This document shows, in pieces, positions 3-31,703 of a stretch of 36,379 nucleotides of DNA. The notes under the pieces are model-generated. The model made no database searches, was not told the DNA's origin, and saw nothing but the letters and a program-made list of their open reading frames with translations. Every line of letters begins with the position of its first letter. Position 1 is the stretch's first letter. The position numbers and the translations under genes are program-made. Source of the stretch: Desulfobacterales bacterium (GTDB taxonomy: Bacteria; Desulfobacterota; Desulfobacteria; Desulfobacterales; JAHEIW01); assembly GCA_037388985.1 (NCBI GenBank), contig JARRJQ010000013.1, positions 2,300 through 38,678 of the forward strand. Reading direction: 5' to 3'.

Positions 3-380
3 ATCGGGCTTCACGAAAATGAAATGGATTTTGGAGATCTAGATATTAATTTTGTAGCCCGCAATGGACGGATTGAAACCTCTCCCATCCGGCTTGAAAT
101 CGACGGCTACCCGATTGAGTTGCACGGCTCGGTAGGCTTTGATAAAAGCCTTGACTATATCGCCAAACTGCCTATTACCCCCATGCTGGTTGGAAATAAA
201 GCTTACCCATATCTTAAAGGCGCTACAATTGACGTGCCCATTCGCGGGAGCGCTTCACATCCGAATATCGACAAAAGAACGATGCATAAGGTGAGTGCAG
301 AGATGGTGCAACAGGCTTTTCAAAAACCCCTTGAGCAAGGGGTTCAAAAAATTTTCGAGCAACTACTCAAAAACAAGTAG
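3..380 (+). CDS. AsmA-family protein, C-terminal fragment (5' end lies outside the window)
   Basis: The frame is open from the window edge to TAG at 378-380. The C-terminal pattern (DGYPIELHGSVGFDKSLDY...IDVPIRGSASHPNID) resembles AsmA-like C-terminal regions. Confidence 0.45.
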   Translation: MGLHENEMDFGDLDINFVARNGRIETSPIRLEIDGYPIELHGSVGFDKSLDYIAKLPITPMLVGNKAYPYLKGATIDVPIRGSASHPNIDKRTMHKVSAEMVQQAFQKPLEQGVQKIFEQLLKNK

Positions 381-520
381 TCGTTGACTGTCGGTGCTCA
401 TCGCCCTTGGCGGTGGCACAGGCGGGTTGAACCGACAAGCAGCCGACCCTGGTTGACACATCAGCCCTCTTTTTTTATATTGCGTTTGCCGCACATTGAA
501 TTGGCTTTAGTTCCGACGAT

Positions 521-1090
521 TTGGCTGAAAATATAAGAATGTGCGGATCCCGCATGACGAAAATAGTCGATCTTCATCATTATCGCACTCAAAGGGTTGA
601 GCAGCGGGCTTTTGGTCCCTGGCAAAAACGTTTCGGCGAAGCCTACAATGCAAAGACCTGCCTGGGTGAGCTTTCCGATCAGACCCTGTATTTCCTGGCC
701 CAACCTGGAGAAAGCTGTTCAATCGCTTATTATGAAGCCATAATGGGTGTCTTAGGTTTGGGACCCGCAGCAAAGTTTGACTATCTGTCCAGTGAAGAAC
801 AGATGAAAGTGGTGGATATCCACCTGTTTTTGGCCGACCAGTTGCGATTTGAAATGATGCGCCGTTTGACCTGGCTTGACACCCTGTCTTGTCAAAAAAT
901 CAGTATTGTTGAAATGATCCGGGATTTCAACGCGGTCAAAGCAAAGTGCGCCGGTAATCCTCCGAAACTGGCACCATCCCATCCGGGCTACGCATCTTAC
1001 CAAAATCTAGCTGCCCGCGATAAGGAAGTCTTTATTCGACAACTGCTGCGGCAGGCACTGGAGGAATTTCCGAAACGGTTTGAAAAATAA
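521..1090 (+). CDS. hypothetical protein (189 aa; alternative start at MTKIV, about 554)
   Basis: Long ORF with coding-like composition. No domain recognised by eye. Confidence 0.55.
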   Translation: MAENIRMCGSRMTKIVDLHHYRTQRVEQRAFGPWQKRFGEAYNAKTCLGELSDQTLYFLAQPGESCSIAYYEAIMGVLGLGPAAKFDYLSSEEQMKVVDIHLFLADQLRFEMMRRLTWLDTLSCQKISIVEMIRDFNAVKAKCAGNPPKLAPSHPGYASYQNLAARDKEVFIRQLLRQALEEFPKRFEK

Positions 1091-1117
1091 TTCAGATCGA
1101 AAAATAGAACCTATATA

Positions 1118-1313
1118 GAACCTATCTTAAAAATGTGGATCAGGGTTCAGGGCTCCCGCATATGCGGGATTTCACCTCTTGATTAAAGAGACACTAAGGA
1201 GTTCAAAAGGCGCGGCTTGGCGAAAAAGCGGAGCATACACGTTAGTATGTGAGCATTTTGAGCCGAGCCGCAACACAGCCATGAGCCCTTAGACGCATTT
1301 TTAAGATGGGTTC
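1118..1313. mobile_element. MITE-like element E1 (196 bp) with terminal inverted repeats and TA flanks
   Basis: Left end is GAACCTATCTTAAAAATG (1118-1135). The right end (1296-1313) reverse-complements to GAACCCATCTTAAAAATG. TA lies at 1116-1117 and 1314-1315. It contains the TCCCGC-loop-GCGGGA hairpin (1154-1169) and a 74-nt core homologous to 31593-31666. Confidence 0.55.
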
Positions 1314-2188
1314 TAAATAACTTTATTCAGAGGATATTCAATTATGCCTTCCGCTCCTTTTTTTAAAAGCCTGGGTATCAATTCGCGCACCACATCCGAA
1401 CTCACCACGATTTCCACCGAAAACCATTTGGTGTTATAAAGCGGGGCTACCGTCGGTGCGTTCAGACTGGGAAGCTGAGCGGTTACCTCTTTCATCTTTT
1501 CCTCGGGCACATTCATTTTAATGCCGACCATTTTTTCACCATGTAAGGCGGCGTTGAGCAAAAGCGCAATTTGCTCTATTTTCTCCCGTTTTTTACGATC
1601 TTTCCAGGACCGGTGATTGGCAATCAACTGGGTGTTGGTCTGCATCAATTCATGAATCACCCGCAGGCCATGCGCCTTGATTGTGGACTCGGTCTCGGTA
1701 ACTTCCACGATGGCATCTGCAAGACCGGAGACCGCTTTGGCTTCAGTCGCTCCCCAAGAGAATTCGACGTCGACTTTAATTCTACGTTTCTTGAAATAGC
1801 GTCGCGTAAAATTGACCATCTCAGTGGCAATCTTTTTCCCTTTGCAATCCTCTATCTTTTTAAGCGCAGAATCATAGGGTACCGCCAGTACCCAGCGTGC
1901 CGGCCGCGAACTCACCTTAGAATAAATCAGGTCGCAGACAACATGCACATCCGATTCGTTTTCGGCAATCCAATCTTTGCCGGTCAGTCCTGCGTCCAGG
2001 GTGCCGCTTTCAACATAATGAGACATCTCCTGTGCGCGGCAGATGGCACACTCGATTGCATCGTCATCAATTTCCGGAAAATAGCTTCTACCGTTAACAT
2101 TTATATTCCACCCTGAACGTTTAAACAGCGCAATGGTGGCATCCTGCAGACTTCCTTTGGGAATTCCCAGTTTGAGCCGTTGTTTCAC
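1313..2188 (-). CDS. hisG: ATP phosphoribosyltransferase, long form
   Basis: 291 aa. The N-terminus [22 protein letters not shown] and the overall length are typical of long-form HisG. It overlaps hisI by 4 nt. Confidence 0.9.
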
Positions 2189-2562
2189 TTGCGGTATACC
2201 TCCTTGGGGTCAAACACAGGCTTATCGATAATCCGTACCGACCCATTTTCTATTTTTTTGTGAAAGCAGCTGCGATGCCCTGTATGACAGGTAGCTCCTC
2301 CGATCTGTTCAACTTTTAAAAGCACTGCGTCCTCATCACAATCGATGCGGATTTCCCTGACAATTTGCAGATATCCGGATGTCTGGCCTTTAACCCACAG
2401 CTCCTGCCTGCTGCGACTCCAATAGGTCGCCTTGCCGGTATTCAGGGTTGTCTCCCAGGCCTTCTGATTCATAAATGCCAGCATCAAAACCTCGCCGGTT
2501 TTATAATCCTGCACGACAGCCGGAATGAGGCCGCCTATTTTATCAAAATTTAGATTAATCAT
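2185..2562 (-). CDS. hisI: phosphoribosyl-AMP cyclohydrolase
   Basis: 125 aa with the motifs IPAVVQD...[16 protein letters not shown]...[25 protein letters not shown]. Confidence 0.9.
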
Positions 2563-2714
2563 TTTTGTAAAATCAAATATTGAATTTGTTGAATAAAGGC
2601 GTTAAAGTAAAAGTTTATGGTGTGGCACATTTTAAGTTAAAAATATGCAGCTTGAAATTATAAACTTTTATAGCTAACCGCAACACGATTGAATGTCAAA
2701 TAAATTATTTTAAA

Positions 2715-3878
2715 ATGGCAAAGCAAAAAAGCAAATCCGAGATCTTAAAACAACGCACCCGACCCAAAAAGCGCCGCTTTTTGCGAGCATTTTTGCTGTG
2801 GTCATTTCTGGTGGGTTTTATTTTGGTGCTGATGGGGGCGCTGGCCGGTATCGGCGTTTATTTCTATTTGAGCAGCAGGTTGCCTCAGATTGGCTCTTTA
2901 ACCGAATATCATCCGCCGATCATTAGCACTGTCTATTCGGATGACGGGCGCAAGATTGGCGAATTTTTTGAGGAGCGCCGGATTGTCAAACCTCTTGATC
3001 AGATCCCCGAGCAGCTGATTAATGCATTTATCGCGGCAGAGGATTCGCGGTTTTACAAACACAAAGGTGTTGATTTTTACAGCATCCTCCGCGCGTTTTT
3101 CAAAAACTTGGAGGCCGGTACGATTGTTCAAGGCGGCAGTACCATCACCCAGCAGGTAACCAAATCCTTTTTGTTGACGCCCGAAAAAAGCTATACCCGG
3201 AAATTAAAAGAAGCCATCTTAGCCTACCGGATAGACAAAGCATTTAATAAAAAAGAGATTCTTTACCTATACCTGAACCAGATCTATTTGGGACATGGTG
3301 CATATGGGGTAGAAGCAGCCGCTGAAAATTATTTTGGTAAATCGGCCAAGGATCTTAACCTGGCCGAATGTGCCATTTTGGCCGGATTACCTCAGGCACC
3401 CAGCAAATACTCACCATTTAAATATCCGGAGCGCGCCAAGCAGCGCCAGATTTACGTGTTAAACCGCATGGTGGACGAAGGCTATATTACCAACATCGAA
3501 GCCACCGAGGCGATTAACACCACCGTTGAGATCAAGCCTCGCCGTAATTGGTATATTGAAGAAATCCCTTACTACACCGAGCAGGTTCGCCGCTATGTCG
3601 AGGAAAAATATGGACGAGACATGCTGTACAATCAAGGACTCAAGAGTTATACGGCCGCTAACATTGAAATGCAAAAAATCGCCGAGGAGGAAGTTGAAAA
3701 AGGACTTTATGAACTTGATAAACGCCAGGGCTTCCGGGGCCCGGAACAGCAGCTAGCGCCCGAAGAGATCGAGGCATTTTCAAAAACGATTCAATCCGAG
3801 CTGGACGAGCACCCACTCGAAGCCGGCCAGATCCTAAAGGGCGTTGTGATTAAGGTGTTAAGTGTAAAGCAAAAATGA
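2715..3878 (+). CDS. mrcA: penicillin-binding protein 1A, N-terminal part (TM anchor plus GT51 glycosyltransferase domain); first half of a split gene
   Basis: GT51 motifs EDSRFYKHKGVD, GGSTITQQVTK and RKLKEA. It ends at a TGA that overlaps the ATG of the next ORF (ATGA at 3875-3878). Confidence 0.85.
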   Translation: MAKQKSKSEILKQRTRPKKRRFLRAFLLWSFLVGFILVLMGALAGIGVYFYLSSRLPQIGSLTEYHPPIISTVYSDDGRKIGEFFEERRIVKPLDQIPEQLINAFIAAEDSRFYKHKGVDFYSILRAFFKNLEAGTIVQGGSTITQQVTKSFLLTPEKSYTRKLKEAILAYRIDKAFNKKEILYLYLNQIYLGHGAYGVEAAAENYFGKSAKDLNLAECAILAGLPQAPSKYSPFKYPERAKQRQIYVLNRMVDEGYITNIEATEAINTTVEIKPRRNWYIEEIPYYTEQVRRYVEEKYGRDMLYNQGLKSYTAANIEMQKIAEEEVEKGLYELDKRQGFRGPEQQLAPEEIEAFSKTIQSELDEHPLEAGQILKGVVIKVLSVKQK

Positions 3879-4978
3879 AAGACGCGGATTTATGGCAGCT
3901 GGCTTTGGAGCAAGAACCTATAGCTCAGGCGGCCTTGCTTTGCATCGAAGCTGAAACCGGATTTGTAAAGGCTATTGTGGGCGGTCGCGACTTTCGCGAC
4001 AGCCAGTTTAACCGGGCATTGCAGTCCAGGCGACAGCCCGGCTCTGCTTTTAAACCGATTATCTATGCCGCCGCCTTAGATAAGAAGTTCGATGAACCCG
4101 GTAAATTTTATACCCCTGCAACGGTTATTATTGATTCACCGATTGTTTTTGAGGATGAGGAGAGGGATTTTACCTGGAAACCGAGAAATTACAAAGAGCA
4201 CTTTTTCGGTCCCACCCTAATGCGCGATGCGCTCGCTAAATCCCGCAATGTGGTAACGATCAAGATTTTACAAGACATCGGCGTGGAGTATGCCATTGAA
4301 TATGCCAAAAAACTGGGGATTACCTCTGAATTAAGCAAAAATCTTTCCATTGCGCTGGGTTCCTCAGGTGTATCATTGCTTGAGCTGACCAAAGCCTATT
4401 CGGTTTTCGCCAATCAGGGTTATCTGATTGAACCGGTATTTATAGTCAAAATCGAAGACCGGGACGGTAATGTACTTGAGGAGATGGCCCCCGAACGCGT
4501 TAAAGTCATCGACAAGACCACCGCCTACTTGATGACGCATATGCTGGAAGGTGTGGTTAAGTATGGAACCGCGTGGCGCGTCAAAGCATTAAATCGGCCG
4601 GTAGCCGGAAAAACCGGTACCACAAACAATTTATTCGACGCCTGGTTTATCGGTTATTCACCCCAGTATATCACCGGCACCTGGGTGGGCTTTGACGATG
4701 AGGCTCCCCTGGGAAAATCCGAAACCGGCTCCCGGGCCGCAAGCCCAATCTGGCTGGGTTTTATGCAGCGCATCCTGGCCGATAAGCCACCAAAGGTTTT
4801 CGAGGTGCCCGAGGGCGTGGTTTTTACTAAAATTGATGCCGAAACCGGGCTTTTACCGATTCCCGAATCCAAAGAGACGGCTTTTGTCTGTTTTAAGGAA
4901 GGCACCGAACCCACTGAATACAGTAAAAGACCCGGCGAAATTGCGGACACCGGCGAGTTTTTTAAGAAGGATCTTTAG
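3875..4978 (+). CDS. mrcA: penicillin-binding protein 1A, C-terminal part (transpeptidase domain); second half of a split gene
   Basis: Transpeptidase motifs RQPGSAFKP (SxxK), SRN and KTGTT. It lacks its own membrane anchor and continues the PBP1A alignment from the upstream ORF. Confidence 0.85.
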   Translation: MKDADLWQLALEQEPIAQAALLCIEAETGFVKAIVGGRDFRDSQFNRALQSRRQPGSAFKPIIYAAALDKKFDEPGKFYTPATVIIDSPIVFEDEERDFTWKPRNYKEHFFGPTLMRDALAKSRNVVTIKILQDIGVEYAIEYAKKLGITSELSKNLSIALGSSGVSLLELTKAYSVFANQGYLIEPVFIVKIEDRDGNVLEEMAPERVKVIDKTTAYLMTHMLEGVVKYGTAWRVKALNRPVAGKTGTTNNLFDAWFIGYSPQYITGTWVGFDDEAPLGKSETGSRAASPIWLGFMQRILADKPPKVFEVPEGVVFTKIDAETGLLPIPESKETAFVCFKEGTEPTEYSKRPGEIADTGEFFKKDL

Positions 4979-4980
4979 CC

Positions 4981-5216
4981 TGGCAACTGGTTTCTCGCTT
5001 CTTGCCGCTCGCAACTCGATTCTAGCCCAAAATAGGTTTCGGGTGTCAGGTTTCAGGTCAATAGATAAGCGCTGAGTGCTGAGGACTGAGGACTGAGCAA
5101 AAAATTATTCCTTATGTCCCACCGACCTCAGTCCTCAGCACTCAGTCCTCAGTCCTAAATTTGCAGACACCTGAAGCCTGACATGCAACCGGTAGCCAGA
5201 GGCCAGTTACAGACTT
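4981..5216. repeat. Nested composite inverted repeat made of three heptamer word types, filling the whole convergent spacer
   Basis: Outer tracts are TGGCAAC/TGGTTTC/TCGCTTC... (4981-5025) against 5187-5216. Middle arms are GGTGTCAGGTTTCAGGT (5034-5059) against GACACCTGAAGCCTGAC (5166-5186). Inner arms are GCTGAGTGCTGAGGACTGAGGACTGAG (5071-5097) against CTCAGTCCTCAGCACTCAGTCCTCAGTCC (5127-5155). Confidence 0.75.
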
Positions 5217-6191
5217 TTACTCGGGTGCGGGATAAATCGCCTTTTTGGTCGCAAGGTGTTTGGGCCAGATAACTTCCAGTTTTCCCTCGATCCATTGCAC
5301 CAGAAGAGTCGGATGTTTGTTCTGCCGCGTTTTTTGGTCGTAGCTGATGAACTTAACCGGGCCGAACACTGTCATTAAGTCGGTTGCCGCCAGGGCATCG
5401 CGAACTCCCCTGGGGCTCAGCGCCGATGCGCATTTGAGCGCAGCGGCAATCACCTGCATACCGGCATAGGCCTCAGCCCCATGGTATCCGGGCGGTGTAT
5501 TGGTTGCGGTCCTAAATTTTTTGAAGTACTCTTTTGCTCCGGGGTAAGGCACCGAAGCTGCCCAAGGGGTAAGGGAGACAACCTGTTCAGAGGCTTTTCC
5601 GGCATTTTTTACAAATTCATTTTGGGTGAATCCGGTCGCAGAGCCGATAAACAGCTTTGGATTCAGCTTCAGTTCCCTGGCTTGACGGATCAGACCTGCT
5701 GCATCCCGCATATCATGGGCAACCACGTAAAGCAGATCGGGCCTTTGGATTTTGATCTTAGCCAGCAAGGGTTTGAAGTCGTTGCTGCCCCGCTCATAAC
5801 GTTCCCTGGCCACCAGCCGTAGGTTTAGCACTCGGGCTGTTTTGAAAAAATTCCTCGCTTCGGATGCCCCTGTTAGCGTGTTAACATACACGAGTGCAGC
5901 TGATTTGATGTCAGTTGCAACCTCTTTGACAAAAGATGCGAATGTCTCAAATTGCTCTCCTACCGGCTGATTCAATCTGAAAATGAATTCCCAACCCTGC
6001 TCGGTGATTTTATCCGCTGACGCGCTGTTGACCAGAAATGGTATTTGATTTTGCTGGGCGATGGCGATCGTCGCCCAGGTTACCGAACTTAAAAAACCAC
6101 CGCCGATTACCAGGGGGTGGTTGCGGCGGATTAATTTTTCAATCGCAGCACGCCCTGCATCAGGATTGCCCTGCGTATCTGCAATGATCAA
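5217..6191 (-). CDS. Leu/Ile/Val-type ABC substrate-binding protein, apparently 5'-truncated (no signal peptide; possible pseudogene)
   Basis: 324 aa, starting at a TTG inside the conserved AAGGINGKKIEL region. An in-frame TGA lies at 6246-6248. Complete family members carry roughly 50-70 more N-terminal residues. Confidence 0.65.
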   Translation of the reverse strand: MIIADTQGNPDAGRAAIEKLIRRNHPLVIGGGFLSSVTWATIAIAQQNQIPFLVNSASADKITEQGWEFIFRLNQPVGEQFETFASFVKEVATDIKSAALVYVNTLTGASEARNFFKTARVLNLRLVARERYERGSNDFKPLLAKIKIQRPDLLYVVAHDMRDAAGLIRQARELKLNPKLFIGSATGFTQNEFVKNAGKASEQVVSLTPWAASVPYPGAKEYFKKFRTATNTPPGYHGAEAYAGMQVIAAALKCASALSPRGVRDALAATDLMTVFGPVKFISYDQKTRQNKHPTLLVQWIEGKLEVIWPKHLATKKAIYPAPE

Positions 6192-6319
6192 TTCTATTTT
6201 CTTGCCATTTATGCCGCCGGCCGCAGAGGATAATTGAAAGGTTTTTCATTGGTCCCGACGATAAAAATAGGAATTGGTTTAAACGCACGTGGATTTTTTG
6301 GAGTTTTTAAACTGGATTG

Positions 6320-7027
6320 TCAAATTCCCAGATAGGCCTCTCTGATATCAGACGATCCCTTTATTTCTTCAGGAGTCCCTTTGGCCTTGATCACACCTTC
6401 GTGCATGACATAGACAAAGTCAGCAGCATTCAGTGACGCATCGGCATTTTGTTCCACCAAAAGAATCGTTAAGCCGATTTCGGCTTTCATTTTTTGAATG
6501 GTTTCAAAAACCTCGCCCACCAATTTTGGGGCCAGTCCCTGGCTGGGCTCATCCAGCATCATGAGTTCGGGCTTGGTCATCAACCCCCGTGCAATAGTGA
6601 CCATTTGTTGTTCGCCGCCACTCAAAGACCCGGCCATTTGTTTGCTTCTTTCCTTCAAACGGGGAAATAAGGAATAAACCAGCTCAAGCGATTCTTTCTT
6701 GTGCGCCAGCGCTTTTTTTAAATAGGCACCCATGGAAAGATTTTCGTAAACCGTCATTCCGGGAAACAAATGCTTGCCTTCCGGCACCAGGGCAATGCCC
6801 ATCCCCACCTTTTTATGGGTAGGAACGGTAGTAACATCTTGTTCATTATAAGTCACGCTTCCTCCCCAGGGTTCGACGGAGCCGAAAATCGTGGCGAGCA
6901 TCGTGCTCTTTCCCACGCCATTAGGCCCCAACAGGGATGTTATTGTTCCTTTTTCGACTTCGATGCTCGGTTTCCACAACACCTGCATGGAGCCATAGCC
7001 GGATTCCAATTCATTAATACTTAACAT
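6320..7027 (-). CDS. livF: branched-chain amino acid ABC transporter ATP-binding protein LivF
   Basis: Walker A GPNGVGKST, signature LSGGEQQ, Walker B MMLDEP, and a C-terminal AYLG. Confidence 0.85.
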   Translation of the reverse strand: MLSINELESGYGSMQVLWKPSIEVEKGTITSLLGPNGVGKSTMLATIFGSVEPWGGSVTYNEQDVTTVPTHKKVGMGIALVPEGKHLFPGMTVYENLSMGAYLKKALAHKKESLELVYSLFPRLKERSKQMAGSLSGGEQQMVTIARGLMTKPELMMLDEPSQGLAPKLVGEVFETIQKMKAEIGLTILLVEQNADASLNAADFVYVMHEGVIKAKGTPEEIKGSSDIREAYLGI

Positions 7028-7029
7028 GG

Positions 7030-7605
7030 TTATCCCTCCGGAGGATGACCCAGGTAAACCTCCACAACCTTTGGATCTTGCAGAGCTTCTTGTGTAGGAG
7101 CATCAACGATTTTGGCCCCCTGGTCCAAGACGATAACTTTTTCGGCCATGCCGACAACTGCGCGCATGATATGCTCAACCATGGCAACAATGGCAATTTT
7201 GTCGCGATGCTCATCCAGACCGACACGCTTGGCAATGATATCTGCAAATTCCAAGGCTTGATCAACATTGACTTTACTGCCAATTGTGCCGAACATCGCC
7301 CCAACCGCAATATTTTCTCTAACGCTGGCGGAAGCGAATGGTCTTGGAATCTGAAAGGTTCGACCGATCCCCAGTGGCGCTCTTTTATAAGGCGGCAAGG
7401 TTGTGATATTCTGCCCTTCAAAGATAATCTGGCCCTCTTCGGGAAAGAAGACACCGCTGATGCAATTGAACAGGGTTGTTTTGCCGCTTCCGTTCGGGCC
7501 CACGATTCCGACGAACTGACCGCGTTTTATCTGCAGACTCACCCGATCCACCGCAATCAGACCGCCAAACCGCTTGGTTACTTTTTCGAGCTCTAATAAC
7601 GCCAT
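7030..7605 (-). CDS. livG: LivG-like ABC ATP-binding protein with an internal in-frame deletion (signature and Walker B absent)
   Basis: Walker A GPNGSGKTT, Q-loop RTFQ, H-loop VEH and a C-terminal VYLG are present. The protein is only 191 aa and jumps from RVGLDEHRDK straight to IAIVAMVEH. Confidence 0.75.
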   Translation of the reverse strand: MALLELEKVTKRFGGLIAVDRVSLQIKRGQFVGIVGPNGSGKTTLFNCISGVFFPEEGQIIFEGQNITTLPPYKRAPLGIGRTFQIPRPFASASVRENIAVGAMFGTIGSKVNVDQALEFADIIAKRVGLDEHRDKIAIVAMVEHIMRAVVGMAEKVIVLDQGAKIVDAPTQEALQDPKVVEVYLGHPPEG

Positions 7606-7613
7606 AACCCCAC

Positions 7614-8615
7614 CTAAATGATAAATTTTCCAAGAGCGGTATATTTTAACCTGCTTTTCAACATTCCGACCACACCTTCCGGAAACATCACGATAATCAG
7701 AATGATAATCGGCGCAAAAATCAGCAGCTGAAATCCTGGAAGGAAAATGGCCAGATAGTATTTGGAGATGCCATAAATCAATCCGCCGAAGACCGGTCCC
7801 AGCAATGTGCCGGCGCCGCCTAAAAGCACAATAATAATCGCCTCAACGGTATAATGGATTTCAAAGACTTCCGGGGGAAATACATAGGGAGTTTTGAGCG
7901 CCCAGGACGAGGCGCCGATCAAACCGGCGAAACCGGCGCTGGTGATAAAAGCAAAGATTTTGAATTTCGTCACATGAATGCCCATGACCTTGGCGGCATC
8001 TTCATCTTCGCGCAAGGCTGTCAACGCGTAACCGATTTTGCTGCGCATGTAAAACAGCGTAACGAAGGCCGCCAGCGCCGCAATGATCAGCACCATCACA
8101 TCCGCCCAGAAGGTTGACAGCGCGCTGGCGGCTTCCCTGCCTAAAATTTTATTGAGCTGGGCGGTAAATATGATGCCTTCAGAGCCATTCCAGATCCGGG
8201 CACCTTCGATTAGAAAACGAAACCCTTCATTGACGCCGATGGTGGCAATCGCAAAATAAGCGCCCCTGAGCCTCAGCGCCACAGCGCCTACCGCAATGGA
8301 CAGAAGACCGGACATCAGCAAGGCCAGCAAAAATCCGATGGCAATAATGACGAGTCCCGATTCCAGCCTATTGGCCAGACGCGAGATGGACAAGGCCATG
8401 CCGTAAGTGCCGACACCCATAAATGCCACATAACCGAAATCCACATATCCGGTCATGCCCAGGAAAATATTGAACGCCTGTCCCAGCGCACAATAAAAGA
8501 GAAGCATTGCGACAAGCTGCCATACGCCGGAAACATTATTGCCGATCAAAAATAAAATCAAATAAGCCGCATAGACGGGGATCAGCGGGTAGTATTTTTC
8601 AATTTTATTTTTCAT
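7614..8615 (-). CDS. livM: branched-chain amino acid ABC transporter permease LivM
   Basis: 333-aa polytopic membrane protein at the LivM position of the operon. It overlaps livH by 4 nt. Confidence 0.85.
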   Translation of the reverse strand: MKNKIEKYYPLIPVYAAYLILFLIGNNVSGVWQLVAMLLFYCALGQAFNIFLGMTGYVDFGYVAFMGVGTYGMALSISRLANRLESGLVIIAIGFLLALLMSGLLSIAVGAVALRLRGAYFAIATIGVNEGFRFLIEGARIWNGSEGIIFTAQLNKILGREAASALSTFWADVMVLIIAALAAFVTLFYMRSKIGYALTALREDEDAAKVMGIHVTKFKIFAFITSAGFAGLIGASSWALKTPYVFPPEVFEIHYTVEAIIIVLLGGAGTLLGPVFGGLIYGISKYYLAIFLPGFQLLIFAPIIILIIVMFPEGVVGMLKSRLKYTALGKFII

Positions 8616-9499
8616 TTTTTGCTTAAAATTCCGGTGGGTTTAATTAGAAGAATGACTAACAGCATCAAAAACGAGAAAAACCGGGTCAAGGCAAACGGCT
8701 CCACTCCCGGAATCAAGGCAAACAGGGTATAGGTACCATTTTCTAAAAGTCCAAATACCAGTCCGCCGAAGAAAGCCCCGTAAGGTGAAGACAGACCCCC
8801 TAAAACTGCAATCACAAAAGCTTTCAAGGTGTATCCGCCTCCCATGTAGGGATTGATACCCACAGGGATAAACATCGTAACCAGGACTCCGCTGGCCGTC
8901 GTCAGCCCGATTCCCAGTGCGAAGCTCAAGGCATACGCGCCGCCCACATTCACGCCGCAAACCCTGGCCCCTTGGCTGTCTTCCACCACACTGCGCATGG
9001 CAGCTCCTGCCCGGGTTTTGTTGAACCACAGATAAAGAAGCACGGCAATGCAAACGCTGCCGATAGCGGCATACAGTTTTGACATCGGCAAAACGGTTAT
9101 CCCCAGGTTCAGTTTGCCGACGACCCAGTTATACCCGCGGAACTCGGATCCGAAGATGAGCTTAACCAATTCCTCGAGCAAAACCCCGATCGCGAAGGTG
9201 GCCAGCAGGGTGGCGAGCTCGGGCGCTTTGAGCAACCGTTTGATAGCGGTGTAATAAAAAATGAGACCCAGGCCTATGCCGATAACAAAAGCAACCGGAA
9301 TCGCTAGTATAGGATTTAACCCCAACGCATTAAACAGCATAAGCGCCACAAAGGCACCTACCATGATAAAAGCGCCGTGGCCTACATTGACCACCTTCAG
9401 AACACCAAAAATAAGGCTCAAACCCATGGTGGCCATGCCGTACACGGTTCCCAGCACAAGGCCTTGGATCAGATTGCCCATCAGCTGTTCGAAAATCAT
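8612..9499 (-). CDS. livH: branched-chain amino acid ABC transporter permease LivH
   Basis: 295-aa polytopic membrane protein. The N-terminus (QLMGNLIQGLVLGTVYGMATMGLSLIFG) is typical of LivH. Confidence 0.85.
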   Translation of the reverse strand: MIFEQLMGNLIQGLVLGTVYGMATMGLSLIFGVLKVVNVGHGAFIMVGAFVALMLFNALGLNPILAIPVAFVIGIGLGLIFYYTAIKRLLKAPELATLLATFAIGVLLEELVKLIFGSEFRGYNWVVGKLNLGITVLPMSKLYAAIGSVCIAVLLYLWFNKTRAGAAMRSVVEDSQGARVCGVNVGGAYALSFALGIGLTTASGVLVTMFIPVGINPYMGGGYTLKAFVIAVLGGLSSPYGAFFGGLVFGLLENGTYTLFALIPGVEPFALTRFFSFLMLLVILLIKPTGILSKK

Positions 9500-9600
9500 T
9501 CTAGAATATCCTTATGGTCATTCAGAATATTCAATGCCTTTTCTGAATGGAGATATCGCCATCACCGGCGTAATTTTTTGGGTGATGGCGATTATATCCT

Positions 9601-10872
9601 TTATTTTGGAACCGCAACCTTTCCTTTTGCTTTCTCTTCAAAGGTAGGCATCGGATAAACAAGGTCACCGGTCTGGGCTTCCTTAGGCCAGACAATAACG
9701 CGCTTGCCCATTTGCCATTGAACATTTACCATGGAATGCCCAATTTGCATGCCTGTGTCGTCAATAGCCCAGCCACCGTAAAAAGACATAAACGTCAGAT
9801 CGCCCAGGGCCTTTCTGACGGCATCCGAATCAAATGAATTGGCTTTCTCGGCTGCCAGTACATAGGCCAGCACCTGAGCGCCGGCTTCGGCGGCATGATA
9901 ATCCGGAATGATTTCTTTTCCCAATGCTTTCTTAAAAAGGGTCACAAATTCATCCTGGCTGGGGCCGATCCACTGCTTTCCAACCTTTTTAGCATCAGGT
10001 TCTGAATATTTCACACCATATTCCCAGTGGGAAGGACCCATAACGCCCTCGGCCATGCTGGTAAGCGCTTTGTAGAAGGCCGGCAGGGTCGCCGCGGCGA
10101 TCAACGACAGGGCATTGGTGTCGATGTCCAGATCGGCCATCTGGCGGTTGAAGAGCTGCCCGTCTTCAAAATGTCCTCCACCGAGAACAAAGTCAGGGCT
10201 GGTGGCTTTCATGGCCGAAAGCAGCGGGGTCAAATCCGTAACACCTTTAGGGTAAGTGCGCTGAAAGATAATATTAAAACCCAGTTTTTTGGCGTAAGCT
10301 TCGGCCCCCATCATGACCGTTTTGGCAAATTCGTCGTCTTCATAAGCCAAAGCGACATTTTTGGCTTTCGGATCCACAGCCTTGATCATATCGAGGGTAC
10401 CCATGTGATAGCTCGTAGCCGGCCCGATGGTTTGAACAACGTAGCGGAAACCCTGCTGGAAAATCTTGTTGCTGGCTCCGCCATGATCCATATACAGCAT
10501 CTTGTAACTCTCTGCTACCGGCGCGCCACGCAACGTCAGGCCGGAGCTGTAAGGAGCGAAAATCACATTTACCTTATCGGATGTGATCAGGCGCTCAATC
10601 AGGCTGGTGACGCCTTCTTTTTTAGATTCACAGTCGTAATATTTATACTCAATCGGATATTTTTTCCCACCGACGTTTATGCCGCCCCTATTGGTATTGA
10701 CCCAATCGACTACCGCCTTAATTCCACCCAAGGCCTGCTCACCGGCCTTGGCATATTTGCCTGACAGGCAGGCAGGATGACCGATGACGACTTTATCGGC
10801 AGCCGAGGCACCCGTCAGTATCAACCCCATGACACACAAAGTTGAAAAAAAGATTAATGCATGTTTTTTCAT
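9601..10872 (-). CDS. ABC transporter substrate-binding protein (Liv-type periplasmic binding protein) with signal peptide
   Basis: The likely start is ATG at 10872 (MKKHALIFFSTLCVMGLILTGASA), preceded by AAGGAGG. The 10935 start on the ORF track is probably too far upstream. Confidence 0.85.
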   Translation of the reverse strand: MKKHALIFFSTLCVMGLILTGASAADKVVIGHPACLSGKYAKAGEQALGGIKAVVDWVNTNRGGINVGGKKYPIEYKYYDCESKKEGVTSLIERLITSDKVNVIFAPYSSGLTLRGAPVAESYKMLYMDHGGASNKIFQQGFRYVVQTIGPATSYHMGTLDMIKAVDPKAKNVALAYEDDEFAKTVMMGAEAYAKKLGFNIIFQRTYPKGVTDLTPLLSAMKATSPDFVLGGGHFEDGQLFNRQMADLDIDTNALSLIAAATLPAFYKALTSMAEGVMGPSHWEYGVKYSEPDAKKVGKQWIGPSQDEFVTLFKKALGKEIIPDYHAAEAGAQVLAYVLAAEKANSFDSDAVRKALGDLTFMSFYGGWAIDDTGMQIGHSMVNVQWQMGKRVIVWPKEAQTGDLVYPMPTFEEKAKGKVAVPK

Positions 10873-10968
10873 ACCTTTTGCCTCCTTTAAATTAAGGGTT
10901 CGATTCTTCTGTCTATGACCATAATTCATGTTCAACTATTTATCCGGCAATGATAAATGAACCGCCAT

Positions 10969-11044
10969 CGGTTTCTATACAATTGAAATTCAAAGAGTGT
11001 CAACCTATAAAAATCTGAAAAACCTGTCCGGTTTTTATACGATT
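10969..11044 (-). promoter_or_regulatory. Two copies of a 16-nt direct repeat upstream of the liv-type operon (candidate operator or UTR element)
   Basis: CGGTTTCTATACAATT (10969-10984) and CGGTTTTTATACGATT (11029-11044) match at 14 of 16 positions, 60 bp apart. They lie about 100-170 nt upstream of the 10872 start. Confidence 0.25.
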
Positions 11045-11293
11045 AGACTGAAAATAACCCGTGATATCGGCTGCTTAATCATTTCACGACAGGCTTTACC
11101 AAGGCGTTTGCAGGATGGAAATGCTAAAGCACTTAGGCGGATCTCCAGGGGCTTATTTTCTAATTGACTTGATCGGATTAGAGCGGATGCGCTGGTTTTG
11201 CATGGCAAAAAGGCCGTCGCTAGATTTAGGCACCTCGACCCGGCTACCGATGCATGATAGGTAAAATTGGTGGGTGTTTGCCGGGCAGATAAA

Positions 11294-12340
11294 TTATTTA
11301 ACTTGTAATTCCTGTTCGCCTAAAGACAGATCCGGGACAACTTCTACTGATTTTAGCCTAAATTTTTCTTTCAGAATGCTGATATTTTTATTTCCCAGAC
11401 CCCGCATCTTAGATAGGCTGTGCGGATGAACATGAAGCGCAGCTGATTTCCCGATACTTCTCGCAGAATTCAGGGCGGCAACGGCCATATCCAGAAAAAT
11501 CGCAGAATAAACCAGATGCCCGAAGGCGGCGTGATAGGGGCCGGCCAAAATGGTCGAATCTTTTTCAAGATCTTCGGTTGCCTGCAGGCCCATTCGAACG
11601 ACACGAATATTTTCATGCTTGAAAATTCGATAGATATCTTTCACCTCGGCCACTGCCTGTGCAAGGCTCAAAGGTGTATAGCGGCCGTTTTTATACCATT
11701 TTGCGAGGGGGCTGTCGGCCAAAACCACTGTCGGGTAAATACGGATAAAATCCGGCTTCAAACGGGCAACCCGGCGGGCAGAATCGCGCAGTCGTGCCGG
11801 GGTATCGCCCGGCAGGCCGACCATTAATTGCAGACCGATCTCATAGTTTAATTCCTTGAGGCGTTGAATGGCTTTTTCTGTATCTGAGGCGGTGTGACCG
11901 CGCTTTGTCGCCGACAGCACCCGATCATCCATGGATTGAACACCCAGTTCGACGGTTGCGACCGGAAATTTTTTAATCATATTCAGCCGATGGCCGTCGA
12001 TTGTATCTGGCCGGGTCGAAAAACGGATACTGTCGGCACGGCCTGTCCGAACCAATTCGGCAGCCTCGGCCAGCAGTCCCTTCATTTCATCCGATTTAAT
12101 TCCTAAAAAATTTCCGCCGAAAAAAGCAATCTGGACACCATTTCGCCGCTTGCCTTTGTATTTCAAAAACCTTTCGACGTGATCGGAGACCCTGATTTTA
12201 GGTGTCTTAAAACCGACTCCGGTAATCGAAGATTGGTTGCAAAACACGCACCGGTGCGGGCAGCCGGCATGTGGAATAAAAATGGGGATGATAAACGGCT
12301 TTTGTAAGTTGGATATTACTGTCAAATCTTTATCCCGCAA
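11294..12340 (-). CDS. radical SAM protein, ELP3-like family
   Basis: CxxxCxxC motif in PIFIPHAGCPHRCVFCNQ. 348 aa with a TTG start. Confidence 0.8.
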   Translation of the reverse strand: MRDKDLTVISNLQKPFIIPIFIPHAGCPHRCVFCNQSSITGVGFKTPKIRVSDHVERFLKYKGKRRNGVQIAFFGGNFLGIKSDEMKGLLAEAAELVRTGRADSIRFSTRPDTIDGHRLNMIKKFPVATVELGVQSMDDRVLSATKRGHTASDTEKAIQRLKELNYEIGLQLMVGLPGDTPARLRDSARRVARLKPDFIRIYPTVVLADSPLAKWYKNGRYTPLSLAQAVAEVKDIYRIFKHENIRVVRMGLQATEDLEKDSTILAGPYHAAFGHLVYSAIFLDMAVAALNSARSIGKSAALHVHPHSLSKMRGLGNKNISILKEKFRLKSVEVVPDLSLGEQELQVK

Positions 12341-12587
12341 GCTGTTTGAATCGGCGAGCCGATTAGCGCTCCGCGCTTGAGGAGCACTTCGTTCGAGGAT
12401 CAGCCCTTCGGGCGTCTAGGAGCGCCCTGGCGGGCTTTAGGCAATAACCGGAGCCGACCCAGCTGCTATGGTTAATGATCCTTCATACTTCAACCCGTTT
12501 CATCAAATCCCGCAGAAAGCGGGATGCTCTTCAAGTGAAACGCTCCTCAAGCGCAGCGCTCCTCAAATTCCGCCCGAAGTGGGATGG
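12341..12587. repeat. Structured repeat E12, sharing modules with the E1/E13/E16/E31 family
   Basis: Inverted repeat GCGCTCCGCGCTTGAGGAGC (about 12365-12385) against GCTCCTCAAGCGCAGCGCTCC (about 12541-12562). Hairpin ATCCCGCAGAAAGCGGGAT at 12507-12525. The reverse complement contains CTAGACGCCCGAAGGGCTG, similar to CTAATGTCCGAGGGCTG in E31. Confidence 0.45.
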
Positions 12588-13389: not shown

Positions 13390-13634
13390 GAAGTGGTTTC
13401 AAAACCCCATCTAGCGTCCGATAGCTGCGTTGCAGCCCTCTTCAAATTAGGTGCTCATCCCGCCTCAGGCGGGACTGCGCTTTTTCACTTGTCCCGCCAT
13501 AGCCCCGTAGCTCGCCAAAGGGCGACGGCGGATCGGCCTGCGCTTGCTGAGCACCTTAAATTAGCAAGATTAGATGCGAAGTCCCGCTATCTAGCGGGGC
13601 TCTCGAACGCGATCTGAGACTTTGAAACCACTTC
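13390..13634. mobile_element. MITE-like element E13 (245 bp), E13/E31 subfamily
   Basis: Terminal inverted repeat GAAGTGGTTTCAAA (13390-13403) against TTTGAAACCACTTC (13621-13634). The left end GGTTTCAAAACCCCATCTAGCGTCCGATAGCTGCGTTGCAGCC is about 80% identical to the E31 left end. Internal hairpins lie at 13458-13474 and 13583-13598. Confidence 0.55.
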
Positions 13635-16606: not shown

Positions 16607-16624
16607 AATCTATCCTCCATGTGA

Positions 16625-17012
16625 ATTGTCCGTCGTTCGTTGTCTGTTGTCCGTTGCAAGGACTTACTCAGAAAAACAAAAGCCGATCGAAAAGATCGAT
16701 TTTCCTCGCGCTGGATCGAAATCTCACATTTAGATAGTGAATATGTGGGAGACGATTCAAAGCGCTATCGAAACGAATCCGACTAGAAGCCATCTCAAAA
16801 ATGTCTTTTGGCCTCCCGCCTTTTTCGGCGGGATTGGTGCCTCGTTTCAAATCCTCGACAACCAATAGGTTGCCTGCGGTTTGAAACTCGGCCCCGCCGC
16901 GATCTTGAACCAAAATCCTATTTTTGAGATGGCTTCTAATACATGTTTCTGATCCAAGCACCCGTTAGTGTTTAGGAAATTGCTACTGACCACTAACCAC
17001 GGACAACGAACA
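16625..17012. repeat. Heptamer-arm inverted repeat (TTGTCCG/TCGTTCG words) whose loop carries MITE E16
   Basis: Left arm TTGTCCGTCGTTCGTTGTCTGTTGTCCGTTGC (16625-16656). Right arm AACCACGGACAACGAACA (16995-17012). The core GTTCGTTGTC is perfectly complementary between the arms. Confidence 0.6.
16786..16936. mobile_element. MITE-like element E16 (151 bp) with a perfect 17-bp terminal inverted repeat and TA flanks
   Basis: GAAGCCATCTCAAAAAT (16786-16802) against ATTTTTGAGATGGCTTC (16920-16936). TA at 16784-16785 and 16937-16938. Hairpin TCCCGCCTTTTTCGGCGGGA at 16814-16833. Confidence 0.6.
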
Positions 17013-17016
17013 TTCT

Positions 17017-22393: not shown

Positions 22394-24982
22394 CTATACC
22401 GTTTTAAATACGATTTTATCCCCCTCGGCTTCTGCGCTCACCCGGGCGCCATCAGGAATTCTGCCGCCAAGGATTTCCAGTGATAACGGATTTTCGATGT
22501 ATTGCTGGATCACCCGTTTTAAAGGTCGCGCACCATAGACCGCATCATAACCTTGCCTGGCAAGCAACGCCTTGGCGCTGTCGGATAATATAAGATCGAT
22601 ATTTCTGTCGGCAAGCCGTCGGCCTAATCTGTCGATCTGAATGTCCACGATCTTTACGATATCATCGAGCGTCAGGTTCTGGAATATGATGATTTCATCG
22701 ATGCGGTTTAAGAATTCCGGCTTAAAATTCGCTCGCAGGGCATCGGTTACCCGCTTTTCCATTTCCTGACGGTCAGCGCCTGCCAGTTCTTGAATCCACT
22801 GGCTGCCCACATTGGAGGTCATAATGACAATCGTATTTTTAAAATCAACGGTTCGGCCGTGGCCGTCGGTCATGCGGCCGTCATCCAGGATTTGCAACAT
22901 GATATTGAATACTTCCGGGTGAGCTTTTTCGATTTCGTCAAATAGAACCACCGAATACGGCCGGCGGCGAACCGCTTCGGTCAGGTAACCGCCTTCCTCG
23001 TAACCGACATACCCCGGTGGAGCGCCGATCAGCCGGGCAACTGAATGTTTTTCCATATACTCGGACATATCAATGCGAACGATAGCCTGTTCGCTGTCAA
23101 AGATAAATTCGGCCAGTGCTTTCGCCAGCTCAGTTTTTCCGACCCCGGTAGGCCCCATAAAAATAAATGATCCAATCGGCCGGTTAGGATCTTGCAGGCC
23201 GGAGCGAGCCCGGCGGACGGCATTGGCTACCGCCGATACGGCTTCGTCCTGCCCGATAACCCGCCGATGCAGCCGATCTTCCATACGCAGCAGTTTATCC
23301 CGTTCACCTTCCAGCATTTTGCTGACCGGAATCCCGGTCCAGCGGGAGACGACTTCTGCGACATCCTCATCATCGACTTCTTCTTTAAGCATTTTGCTGG
23401 ATTGCTGAAGCTCTGAAAGCTTTTGGTTGGCTTCTTCCAGCCGCTTTTGCAACTCCAGAGCTTTGCCGTATCGAATTTCAGCTACCCTGGCTAAATTGCC
23501 TTCGCGTTCGGCCAACTGGGCTTCGGTGTTCAATTGCTCCTGATCCTCCTTGATCTTGCGAATCGTCTGGATCAGATCTTTTTCATTTTGCCAGTGGCCT
23601 TTCATTTTCATCAACTCGTCATTCATATCGGCCAATTCAGCTTCCAATTTCTTGAGGCGTTCTTTAGCGGCCGGATCCGTTTCCTTTTTCAGCGCCTGAC
23701 GTTCGATTTCAGATTGGGTGATTTTGCGCTGAATTTCGTCAATTTCCGCCGGCATGCTGTCAATTTCAATTCTCAACTTGGAAGCACATTCGTCAATAAG
23801 ATCAATGGCTTTATCCGGCAAAAAGCGATCGGCAATATAACGATGGGAAAGGGTGGCAGCCGCCACAATCGCTGAATCTTTTATGCGAACACCGTGGTGA
23901 ACCTCGTATTTTTCTTTCAACCCGCGCAAAATGGATATGGTATCTTCCACGGTGGGTTCACCTACGAAAACGGGCTGAAATCGACGTTCCAGAGCGGCAT
24001 CTTTTTCAATATATTTGCGATATTCGTTGAGCGTGGTAGCTCCCACGCATCTTAGCGTGCCCCGCGCCAGGGCGGGTTTGAGCATATTGGATGCGTCCAC
24101 CGCGCCTTCGGCGGCTCCGGCACCCACCACGGTATGAAGCTCATCGATAAACAGGATAATTTCCCCCTCGGCGGTTTCGACTTCTTTGAGTACCGCCTTA
24201 AGCCGGTCTTCAAACTCGCCGCGATATTTCGCGCCGGCGATCAGGGCCCCCATATCAAGGGCCACCAGGCGACGATTTTTCAGAGTTTCGGAAACATCTC
24301 CTTCTACAATTCGCTGGGCCAGACCTTCGACAATGGCGGTTTTTCCGACACCTGGTTCTCCGATCAAAACCGGATTGTTTTTCGTTCGCCTGGAAAGCAC
24401 CTGGACGATTCTTCGGATTTCGTCATCCCGGCCGATCACAGGATCCAATTTGCCCAAACGGGCCAGATCCGTCAAATTACGGCTAAATTTTTCCAGAGCC
24501 TGATATTTTTCTTCCGGATTCGGGTCGGTGATGCGCTGGTTTCCCCGAATTTCGATCAGCGCTTTTAAAATGGCTTCACGCGTTATACCGTTGCCGGTCA
24601 GAATACGAGCCGCTTCACCACCTTTTTTATCGCACAAGGCTAAAAGAATGTGCTCGATGCTGACATATTCGTCTTTCATATTGGTGGCTTCGGCAAATGC
24701 CTGTTCCAGTACCGTTTTGGTTCTAGGCGAAATGTAAACCTCTCCCATTCCGGTCCCGCTGACGCTCGGAAGTTTGGCGACTGCCGCATCTGCTTTTTGA
24801 GCAACTTCAGCAGGCGAGACACCTAATTTGCGAAGCATGGCACCGGCGATACCATCGGCCTGACCAAGCATTGCGGCCAGCAGGTGTTCGGGCTCGATCT
24901 GCTGATTATTGCGCTGCGAGGCCAGCGACTGGGCACTCTGTATAAGTTCTTGAGATTTTATGGTAAATTTATCAAAACGCAT
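22394..24982 (-). CDS. clpB: ATP-dependent chaperone ClpB
   Basis: 862 aa with two AAA+ modules ([18 protein letters not shown]), a long middle coiled-coil and a Clp N-domain. Confidence 0.95.
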
Positions 24983-27528: not shown

Positions 27529-29004
27529 TTAAAGGATGTGTATCTCGCAGACTTTTCGGAAATGATGGCCATATATTGCAAAGGTGATGGCCAAAGGCAT
27601 TAATTCAGGCCGCTTGCAAAGGGTCCACAGCAAAAGTTTCCAATATTGAAACCTTTCCTTGCCGAAAATTCCCAAATGAATGCAGGAATGCAAAAAGGCT
27701 ATTAAGCTTTCAACGTTGGCCGGAATTTCAATTTTCGGGGGTTTATATTCTCCCAGAAACGTTTTCACCCGTTCATAATAGTGTTTGGGTGAATAAATAT
27801 ATCCTAATATTTTTTTATAGCCATCGCTTAGGGTTTTAAGTTCCATTCGCGGAATAATATTGGTTGTACCGTCGGTATTGCCCGAGATCAAGCCAGACAG
27901 GCGGCCTTCCGCTTTCATCCGCTGATAAAGCTGCGTACCCGGAGGCGCATTCAGCAACCCGACCATGGCGGTCACGATTCCACTTTTCTGGATAAAATCG
28001 ATTTGCCGCTGGAAAATGAAAGGCGTGTCGCTATCGAAGCCCACAATGAAGCCTCCCTGAACCTGGAGGCCGGCTCTTTGTATATGCTTTACGTTTTCGA
28101 CCAGATCACGGTTTTTATTCTGTCTTTTATTGCATTCAGCCAGACCCGCTTCAGCCGGTGTCTCAATCCCGATAAAGACCGAATCAAACCCTGCCGTAAC
28201 CATCATTTTCATTAACATTTCATTGTCAGCCAGATCGATTGACGATTCGGTGTTGAAGCGGATTTGTTTTTTGTCTTTTTGCCATTCAATTAAGGCCGGC
28301 AGGAGCTCAGTAAGGAGATACTTCCTGTTTCCGATAAAGTTATCGTCTACGAAAAAAATCTGCCCCCGCCACCCTAATTGATAAAGGCCATCGAGCTCGG
28401 CAATGATTTGCATGGCGGTTTTAATTCGCACGCGATGCCCAAGCAACGCCGTAATATTGCAAAAGTCACAATTAAAAGGACAGCCGCGGGAAAACTGGAT
28501 GCTCATCGCCGCGTAACGCTTTAAATCAATCAGCTCCCACATTGGTGGCGGCGTTCTACGGATATCGGCAAATTCCGTTGTGTGATAGACTTTCCTGGCG
28601 CATCCCTGTTGCAGATCCTTCAGAAAGGGAGGCAATGTCAACTCGGCTTCATTCAAGACAAAATGGTCAACCTCATCAAACAGACCGTGTTCACTGGCGA
28701 ACAGAGGCCCGCCGGCAACGACTTTTAATCCCGCCTTTTTGCAGCGGGCAATGACCTGACGGGTAGATTCTCTTTGTACCGCCATGGCACTGATAAAAAC
28801 ACTGTCGGCCCACTGCAGATCTTTTTCGGTAAGCCTGGTCACATTTAAGTCAACCAGGCGTTTGGGCCATTTGGGGGGCAACATGGCACCTACCGTCAGC
28901 AGCCCCAGGGGAGGGAAGGCCGATTTTTTGTGAATAAACTTCAGTGCGTGCTTAAAGCTCCAGAAAGTATCTGGAAATGCCGGGTAGAGAAGCAGTGTGT
29001 TCAT
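27529..29004 (-). CDS. B12-binding-domain radical SAM protein (class B, DUF4070-type C-terminus)
   Basis: N-terminal B12-binding-like region (PPLGLLTVGAMLP), the radical SAM motif SRGCPFNCDFC, and about 490 aa. ATG at 29004. Confidence 0.85.
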   Translation of the reverse strand: MNTLLLYPAFPDTFWSFKHALKFIHKKSAFPPLGLLTVGAMLPPKWPKRLVDLNVTRLTEKDLQWADSVFISAMAVQRESTRQVIARCKKAGLKVVAGGPLFASEHGLFDEVDHFVLNEAELTLPPFLKDLQQGCARKVYHTTEFADIRRTPPPMWELIDLKRYAAMSIQFSRGCPFNCDFCNITALLGHRVRIKTAMQIIAELDGLYQLGWRGQIFFVDDNFIGNRKYLLTELLPALIEWQKDKKQIRFNTESSIDLADNEMLMKMMVTAGFDSVFIGIETPAEAGLAECNKRQNKNRDLVENVKHIQRAGLQVQGGFIVGFDSDTPFIFQRQIDFIQKSGIVTAMVGLLNAPPGTQLYQRMKAEGRLSGLISGNTDGTTNIIPRMELKTLSDGYKKILGYIYSPKHYYERVKTFLGEYKPPKIEIPANVESLIAFLHSCIHLGIFGKERFQYWKLLLWTLCKRPELMPLAITFAIYGHHFRKVCEIHIL

Positions 29005-31560: not shown

Positions 31561-31703
31561 AATTGGTTTTAAAACCCCATCTAATGTCCGAGGGCTGTGT
31601 TACAAGCCGGCTAAAAATGCTCACGTACTATCGTGTACGCTCCGCTTTTTAGCCGACTTGCGCCTTGCCCTCAGCCATAATCTGAGGTCTTAAAACCAAT
31701 TTT
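31559..31703. mobile_element. MITE-like element E31 (145 bp)
   Basis: 14-bp perfect terminal inverted repeat AAAATTGGTTTTAA (31559-31572) / TTAAAACCAATTTT (31690-31703). The left end is homologous to E13. The 74-nt core (31593-31666) is 81% identical, ungapped, to the reverse complement of 1207-1280. Confidence 0.6.

Follow-up and report, generated by a model that had tools for sequence, protein, structure and literature searches.

Two palindromic repeats of a Desulfobacterales bacterium, E1 and E16, are real transposase-less mini-transposons (MITEs), and their 17-bp ends are probably served in trans by an IS5-family transposase of the IS427 type. Both lie in a 36,379-nt stretch of contig JARRJQ010000013.1 (the window, to which coordinates refer unless a locus is named). 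The elements are an ordinary addition to a known type and introduce no new principle. They do correct the common shortcut by which TA flanks are equated with IS630/mariner, as the bacterial IS427-type branch of the IS5 family leaves the same signature. Moreover, they tie an unannotated repeat, abundant in Desulfobacterales of marshes and marine sediments, to a 17-bp end that occurs on both MITEs and ISs in no fewer than eight phyla.

Ends, flanks and copies of the elements

With 196 and 151 bp and no coding function, E1 and E16 have the format of MITEs (Table 1); the sole ORF across E16 (16668-16961) has no Pfam match. The inverted 17-bp ends described by the first-pass annotation were recovered by direct reading and by pattern search. 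In E1, they are identical at 16 of 17 positions, or at 17 of 18 when the next G is included. The consensus end, GAASCYATCTYAAAAAT, has four exact matches in the window and one with three mismatches, for a chance expectation of 1.2 at up to three mismatches. The same annotation had placed a TA on each side of both elements, an 11-bp tandem duplication at the left junction of E1 and no transposase in the window. All four TA dinucleotides are present, and the two copies of the duplication (ATAGAACCTAT, 1104-1114 and 1115-1125) are identical; the repeated unit comprises the flanking A, the TA and 8 nt from the start of the terminal inverted repeat (TIR). Scans for IS630-type and IS5_3-type motifs in the window were empty. 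The TCCCGC hairpins that it described exist in both elements, but they lie 36 nt (E1) and 28 nt (E16) from the left end, and not 18-28 nt. Each element folds into one closed hairpin, of -81.1 kcal/mol for E1 (z = -8.8) and -83.6 kcal/mol for E16 (z = -10.9).

Table 1. Coordinates of the elements, their insertion sites, nested hairpins and the transposase-bearing elements with the same ends
Feature	Position	Strand	Description
E1	1118..1313	.	196-bp MITE, type B core of ~142 nt plus nested insert
E1 left TIR	1118..1134	+	GAACCTATCTTAAAAAT; pattern search
E1 right TIR	1297..1313	-	GAACCCATCTTAAAAAT (reverse-complemented); ends at 1313 with the G of hisG TAG
TA, hisG side of E1	1314..1315	.	apparent target site; TA of the former TAA stop codon
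TA, other end of E1	1116..1117	.	presumed duplicated copy
Extra 23 nt	1093..1115	.	CAGATCGAAAAA plus first copy of the 11-bp duplication; absent from empty alleles
Nested insert in E1	1154..1206	.	53 nt: hairpin TCCCGC-ATAT-GCGGGA (1154-1169) plus ~37 nt
hisG	1313..2188	-	ATP phosphoribosyltransferase, 291 aa; Pfam HisG and HisG_C
E16	16786..16936	.	151-bp MITE, type A (canonical form 142 bp)
E16 left TIR	16786..16802	+	GAAGCCATCTCAAAAAT; pattern search
E16 right TIR	16920..16936	-	perfect inverted copy of GAAGCCATCTCAAAAAT
TA left of E16	16784..16785	.	read directly; metagenome contigs diverge at 16782-16784
TA right of E16	16937..16938	.	read directly; metagenome contigs diverge at 16938-16941
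E16 GC hairpin	16814..16833	.	TCCCGCC-TTTTTC-GGCGGGA, in place of CAATATCTTTG of canonical 142-bp copies
CCCGC-loop-GCGGG hairpins	1155-1168, 12509-12523, 13459-13473, 13583-13598, 16815-16832, 24061-24076, 28730-28748		window
Leptospira weilii plasmid IS	L307:2503-3365		863 bp; TA-GAACCCATCTCAAAAAT…GTTTTTGAGATGGGTTC-TA
L307 orfA	2835-3281		DUF4096, 1.4e-27
L307 orfB	2512-3039		DDE_Tnp_1, 3.6e-18
Marine IS (Tara and other marine samples)	L312:755-1622, L312-L321		868 bp; TA-GAAGCTATCTCAAAAAT…GTTTTTGAGATGACTTC-TA

Reference contigs, with one genome per species, were scanned with GAASCYATCTYAAAAAT, which gave at least 117 stretches; ends at most 460 bp apart were paired as short elements. At least 65 such pairs, 76-455 bp long with a mode of 142 bp, share the same 17-bp ends. 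TA is found on both sides of 49 of the 65 listed pairs, on one side of 12 and on neither side of 4, against a TA background of 5% in the loci with copies. Other copies thus have conserved termini and TA flanks, as the first-pass annotation expected, and its reading of the family as non-autonomous, multi-copy, TA-flanked inverted-repeat elements, presumably moved in trans, is supported. The wider target is palindromic, T.AY-TA-RT.A, with YTAR as its core: position -3 is a Y in 55/65 and position +3 an R in 51/65 of the listed pairs, and both occur jointly in 33 of 50 copies with TA on both sides. When copies are oriented according to their interior, the bias is seen at either side. In viral contigs, used as a control, the same pattern had 81 matches, 11 with TA, and gave no short pairs; the sole long pair lies within phage structural genes. 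A search for in-frame insertions showing the element plus 2 nt gave no convincing case, and a text search of the literature for the end sequence returned only human and other unrelated matches.

Many of the listed copies come from MAGs of Desulfobacterales, Desulfosarcina and Desulfatiglandales. Further hosts are Bacteroidota, Ignavibacteria, Acidobacteriota, Chloroflexota, Leptospira borgpetersenii, Myxococcota, Campylobacterota, Gamma- and Betaproteobacteria, and MAGs labelled as Saccharibacteria. Between phyla, only the ends are common and the interiors are unrelated. Abundance was estimated as summed contig word depth in four marsh metagenomes that hold the organism: 650-12,000 over E16 and ~130-4,100 over E1, for 8-35 in the unique flanks. 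At E16, the metagenome contigs part directly outside the TA. These metagenomes contain hundreds of copies of the family, and the depth agrees with the genome scan in showing many copies dispersed over unrelated sites, as is typical of MITEs. One 142-bp copy (L071:4068-4229) is accompanied by an 8-nt direct repeat, TAGTCTAC, of which the left copy stands directly before the flanking TA and the right copy starts with the flanking TA; this element may have inserted into another repeat.

Insertion sites at hisG and hemA-fabD

As noted in the first reading of the sequence, the stop codon TAG of hisG (1315-1313) is made of the flanking TA and the terminal G of E1. The HisG protein has 291 aa in all of the 120 best homologues; an exact look-up of the window protein found no record. 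Two kinds of empty alleles were identified. Those of L126-L137 (HisG 92-93% identical) read …AAAGTTATT TAA A TTATTTTTC…, that is ATT TAA ATT, and the stop of the convergent neighbor is 1 nt beyond that of hisG. The allele is also present in marsh run X1, where a Logan contig joins 1092 to 1314. In L002-L006 (94% lineage), the sequence is …GTCATC TGA A TTA…. Filled alleles occur in the window, in L007 (94%) and in the closest relatives, L001 and L125 (96%); in the last three, the element is of type B and occupies the same TA in the orientation of E1. The hisG contigs of L001 and L125, which come from other metagenomes, end 16-33 nt inside the element, an example of how this repeat family fragments short-read metagenome assemblies.

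Because related lineages have the empty ATT TAA ATT allele, E1 is placed at what was a TAA stop, within its TA. With TA plus G, the same codon is still a stop, hence HisG is kept at 291 aa. Judging from these alleles, E1 evidently inserted into the TA of the TAA stop of hisG and left the length of the protein unchanged; such elements are able to replace stop codons without altering the protein. In comparison with the empty allele, the window contains 221 extra nt: the 196 nt of E1, the 2 nt of TA and 23 nt more. The empty site has a single TA (in the TAA stop), the junction on the hisG side is exact and the far junction carries the 23 extra nt. The comparison with empty sites suggested in the earlier annotation thus found such a site in relatives, but it does not cleanly show a TA duplication for E1. 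In L007, 5 nt are missing on one side, at the far junction. There, a single 144-bp element (L007:3374-3521) gives the G to the TAG stops of both hisG and its convergent 189-aa neighbor. Within 1093-1115, CAGATCGAAAAA includes an ATCGAAA word that is also present beside E16; read on the hisG strand, the stretch recreates ATC TGA, as in the L002-type allele.

The second element, E16, is situated in the spacer between hemA and fabD (16607-17016), which has 410 nt in the window and contains a heptamer-arm hairpin and ATCGAAA words in addition to E16. In relatives with HemA proteins 81-93% identical, this spacer measures only ~20 nt (TAAATCCGGAGGATTTATT and the start codon), which illustrates how intergenic spacers are inflated by elements. 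In a lineage with 88% HemA identity, E16 is absent from the surrounding heptamer-arm hairpin, whose center has diverged. None of the relatives offered an exact empty site for E16: their spacers are either compact (~20 nt) or contain a heptamer-arm hairpin that has diverged. A small palindrome of ATCGAAA words, CGATCGAAAAGATCG, with T-rich tails on both strands, is located at 16683-16699; no other site in the hemA-fabD spacer resembles a terminator.

The positions of the elements, E1 between convergent genes and E16 within the hemA-fabD transcription unit, and the great stability of both hairpins could also be explained if they were resident functional RNA or DNA structures (a bidirectional terminator, an RNase III site or an attenuator) and not mobile at all. 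We consider this very unlikely in view of the hundreds of copies in unrelated contexts and phyla, and of the close relatives that have empty hisG sites and a hemA-fabD spacer of ~20 nt. Furthermore, scans found no promoter-like or terminator-like site inside E1 or E16, and an Rfam search of the window and of nine loci with copies gave no family. A weaker form of this explanation, in which copies were co-opted after insertion for a secondary role as RNA hairpins, is possible but unsupported.

The probable partner transposase

A 30-nt query from the end of E16, searched against plasmids, matched Leptospira weilii plasmids at a feature labeled 'IS5 family transposase'. Only two transposase-bearing elements were found with the exact 17-bp end: the 863-bp Leptospira IS, in L307 and L308, and the 868-bp marine IS, in L312-L321. 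Autonomous elements with the ends of the MITEs therefore exist. With its flanks, the L307 IS reads cTA-GAACCCATCTCAAAAATGCC…GGTTTTTGAGATGGGTTC-TAa; its left 17-mer equals the ends of the L007 element and, save for the Y position, the right end of E1. The copy in L308 occupies a different TA site, and the marine IS is flanked by TA in several flank contexts. The OrfA proteins of the two ISs are 65% identical, and that of L307 has more than 4,000 metagenome homologues, many of them on contigs of ~1 kb.

Both ISs contain an orfA (DUF4096) and an orfB (DDE_Tnp_1), match NCBIfam NF033580 (IS5 family) and have an A7G frameshift site. The IS5-family transposase domain and the two overlapping ORFs are clear in the L307 IS, where orfA and orfB overlap at the slippery site GCAAAAAAAGGGG (A7G). 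The two halves score 112.9 and 127.9 bits with NF033580 (cut-off 110), which covers model positions 4-112 in orfA and 109-258 in orfB. A -1 frameshift probably fuses both frames. The orfB stop is inside the right TIR in both ISs (TTT TGA in L307:2503-2519; GATGAC for GATGGC in L312:1606-1622), so part of the IS end is also coding. A more distant relative of the transposase, L329, has GAGCCGGTCTCAAAACT ends and TAA flanks, and the ends of Deinococcus relatives, 50-60% identical, are unrelated.

The IS427 group, to which IS1248, ISPpa2 and ISPaes1 of Paracoccus belong, comprises ISs of 832-865 bp with direct repeats of 2 bp and a pair of ORFs that bear a frameshift motif (PMC3281130). For membership, an element was expected to span ~800-1000 bp, to have TIRs of 13-21 bp that open with GA or GG, and to show a 2-bp direct repeat (reference values from PMC3281130). 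The two ISs, of 863 and 868 bp, agree in size, in their 17-bp TIRs starting with GAA and in their TA flanks. Because two ISs with the same ends have these IS427-group traits (PMC3281130), the 17-bp ends are assigned, by sequence, to the IS427-type clade of the IS5 family and not to IS630.

The first-pass annotation had taken the TA flanks as a sign of transposition of the IS630/Tc1-mariner type. IS630-family elements duplicate TA, and TA is indeed found on both sides of E1 and E16. The inference is nevertheless unsupported, as the IS427 group within the IS5 family likewise makes 2-bp duplications (PMC3281130), of TA as well; TA flanks are common to both and do not discriminate between them. 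Moreover, the exact 17-bp end sits on two IS5-family ISs, no IS630-family (DDE_3) element with these ends was found in the examined loci or the plasmid collection, and 1.24 Mb around more than 100 copies contain no SPxLNPIE-type transposase motif. It is thus highly improbable that the MITEs were derived from and mobilized by a transposase of the IS630/Tc1-mariner family. A transposase with the same ends, which that annotation had suggested looking for, was found in the two ISs, and it belongs to the IS5 family rather than to IS630.

Strongly folding hairpins over the whole length of the elements, with stems held by compensatory changes (15/53 pairs), would also be expected if they were moved single-stranded by a Y1 transposase (IS200/IS605-like or a REP-associated RAYT). 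TA would then be a one-sided target without duplication, and by sequence alone a carried TA looks the same as a duplicated one. However, oriented copies show a symmetric target context at their two ends, and Y1-moved elements lack a TIR-bearing DDE partner, whereas a partner with identical ends exists here. The probability of such a mode of movement is minimal.

The following mechanism, with an IS427-type enzyme, is proposed. The GAASCYATCTYAAAAAT ends would be the binding and cleavage sites of an IS5-family, IS427-type DDE transposase, an OrfAB protein of ~260 aa made by -1 frameshifting, with DUF4096 as its N-terminal part and DDE_Tnp_1 as its catalytic part, and provided in trans. The enzyme would cleave the TA in the palindromic YTAR, after which TA would be present on both sides of the insert. 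As YTAR includes TAA and TAG and the element starts with G, a stop codon hit at its TA would be rebuilt (TA+G = TAG), and this presumably took place at hisG. The interior would be an unrelated long imperfect palindrome that gained nested GC hairpins later. We infer both the cleavage chemistry at the TA and the movement of E1 and E16 by an IS427-type transposase in this host; mobilization in trans can only be deduced here, because such a transposase was found neither in the window nor in any Desulfobacterales locus examined, and the similarity between MITEs and ISs stops at the TIR. Beyond these 17 bp, it is not significant (z ≤ 2.3), hence the MITEs are not simple deletion derivatives of the two ISs. 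The ORFs adjoining ten solo ends are ordinary genes and no transposase was found among them. Three long end pairs (L123, L102 and L259) were considered as autonomous copies and rejected, as their content is either ordinary genes or a structural gene of a phage.

Rebuilt stop codons were counted at 130 ends that have a TA flank and at least 300 nt upstream. At 23 of them, an open frame of at least 100 codons is closed exactly with TA+G, compared with 7 and 10 in the two remaining frames. This excess is no more than suggestive and would fit a YTAR target combined with purifying selection.

Interiors, nested hairpins and known systems

The two elements represent two sub-families, E1 the ~145-bp type B and E16 the 142-bp type A. 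Eleven canonical 142-bp copies of type A align end to end, and the pairs of their consensus hairpin held by changes on both sides include the S position of the ends. The TCCCGC hairpin is a secondary nested insert and not a feature of the family, as most copies are without it. The E1 insert is missing from most copies, and joints such as 1153 to 1207 occur in all four metagenome runs; among canonical copies, L075:1936-2107, for example, reads GGGC/AAGGCGCG. In E16, a 20-nt GC hairpin stands for an 11-nt stretch of the canonical form, a state shared with L061 (alignment A1).

The motif CCCGC-N3-9-GCGGG was observed seven times in the window (0.37 expected). Five of these hairpins are nested at differing positions in MITE-like elements and two are at non-MITE sites. 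The copies that carry one at differing positions are E1, E16, E12, E13, L061, L085 and L106, and, compared with canonical copies, the hairpins appear either inserted or substituted for other sequence. This suggests that CCCGC-loop-GCGGG is a separate small hairpin module. It may enter or replace short palindromic stretches through a mechanism of its own, independent of the IS427-type transposase. The invariant TA/G…C/TA ends, in turn, may be selected because TAG is rebuilt in both inward directions; if so, the stop codons of convergent genes would be safe landing sites. That both hold together, an independently mobile mini-module and ends selected for stop rebuilding, seems rather unlikely.

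Two sister elements in the window, E13 (13390-13634) and E31 (31560-31702), have the variant ends GAAGTGGTTTCAAAAC and AAATTGGTTTTAAAAC, built on the same GAAG…TCAAAA plan. A 98-nt core is common to E31 and E1 and lies inverted in one relative to the other. The left-flank TA and first A of E31 form the TAA stop (31558-31560) of a response-regulator/SpoIIE gene (30409-31560). The right flanks of E13 and E31 are CG and TG, not TA.

The IS427 group and the two partner ISs are the closest to E1 and E16: the partner ISs have the same 17-bp ends starting with GA, and the 2-bp flank (TA) and the target TA are common to all. Unlike the IS427-group ISs, E1 and E16 contain no gene, and their palindromic interiors are unrelated to those of the ISs. 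The Correia elements of Neisseria are also palindromic (~100-155 bp), with TIRs and TA at both ends, and are intergenic and present in high copy number. To our knowledge, they too are without an obvious resident transposase. Their ends and host lineage differ from those of E1 and E16, and their effects as promoters and RNase III sites are documented. ERIC/MITEEc1 is IS630-related according to ISfinder (named in bioRxiv 10.1101/2024.01.18.576219). Like E1 and E16, these are small palindromic intergenic repeats at TA, but they are assigned to IS630, and their sequence and ends are unrelated. The Rickettsia palindromic elements (RPE) are hairpin, MITE-like repeats located in genes or at their edges without destroying them, and are typically translated in frame. 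E1, in comparison, rebuilds a stop codon and leaves the protein unaltered.
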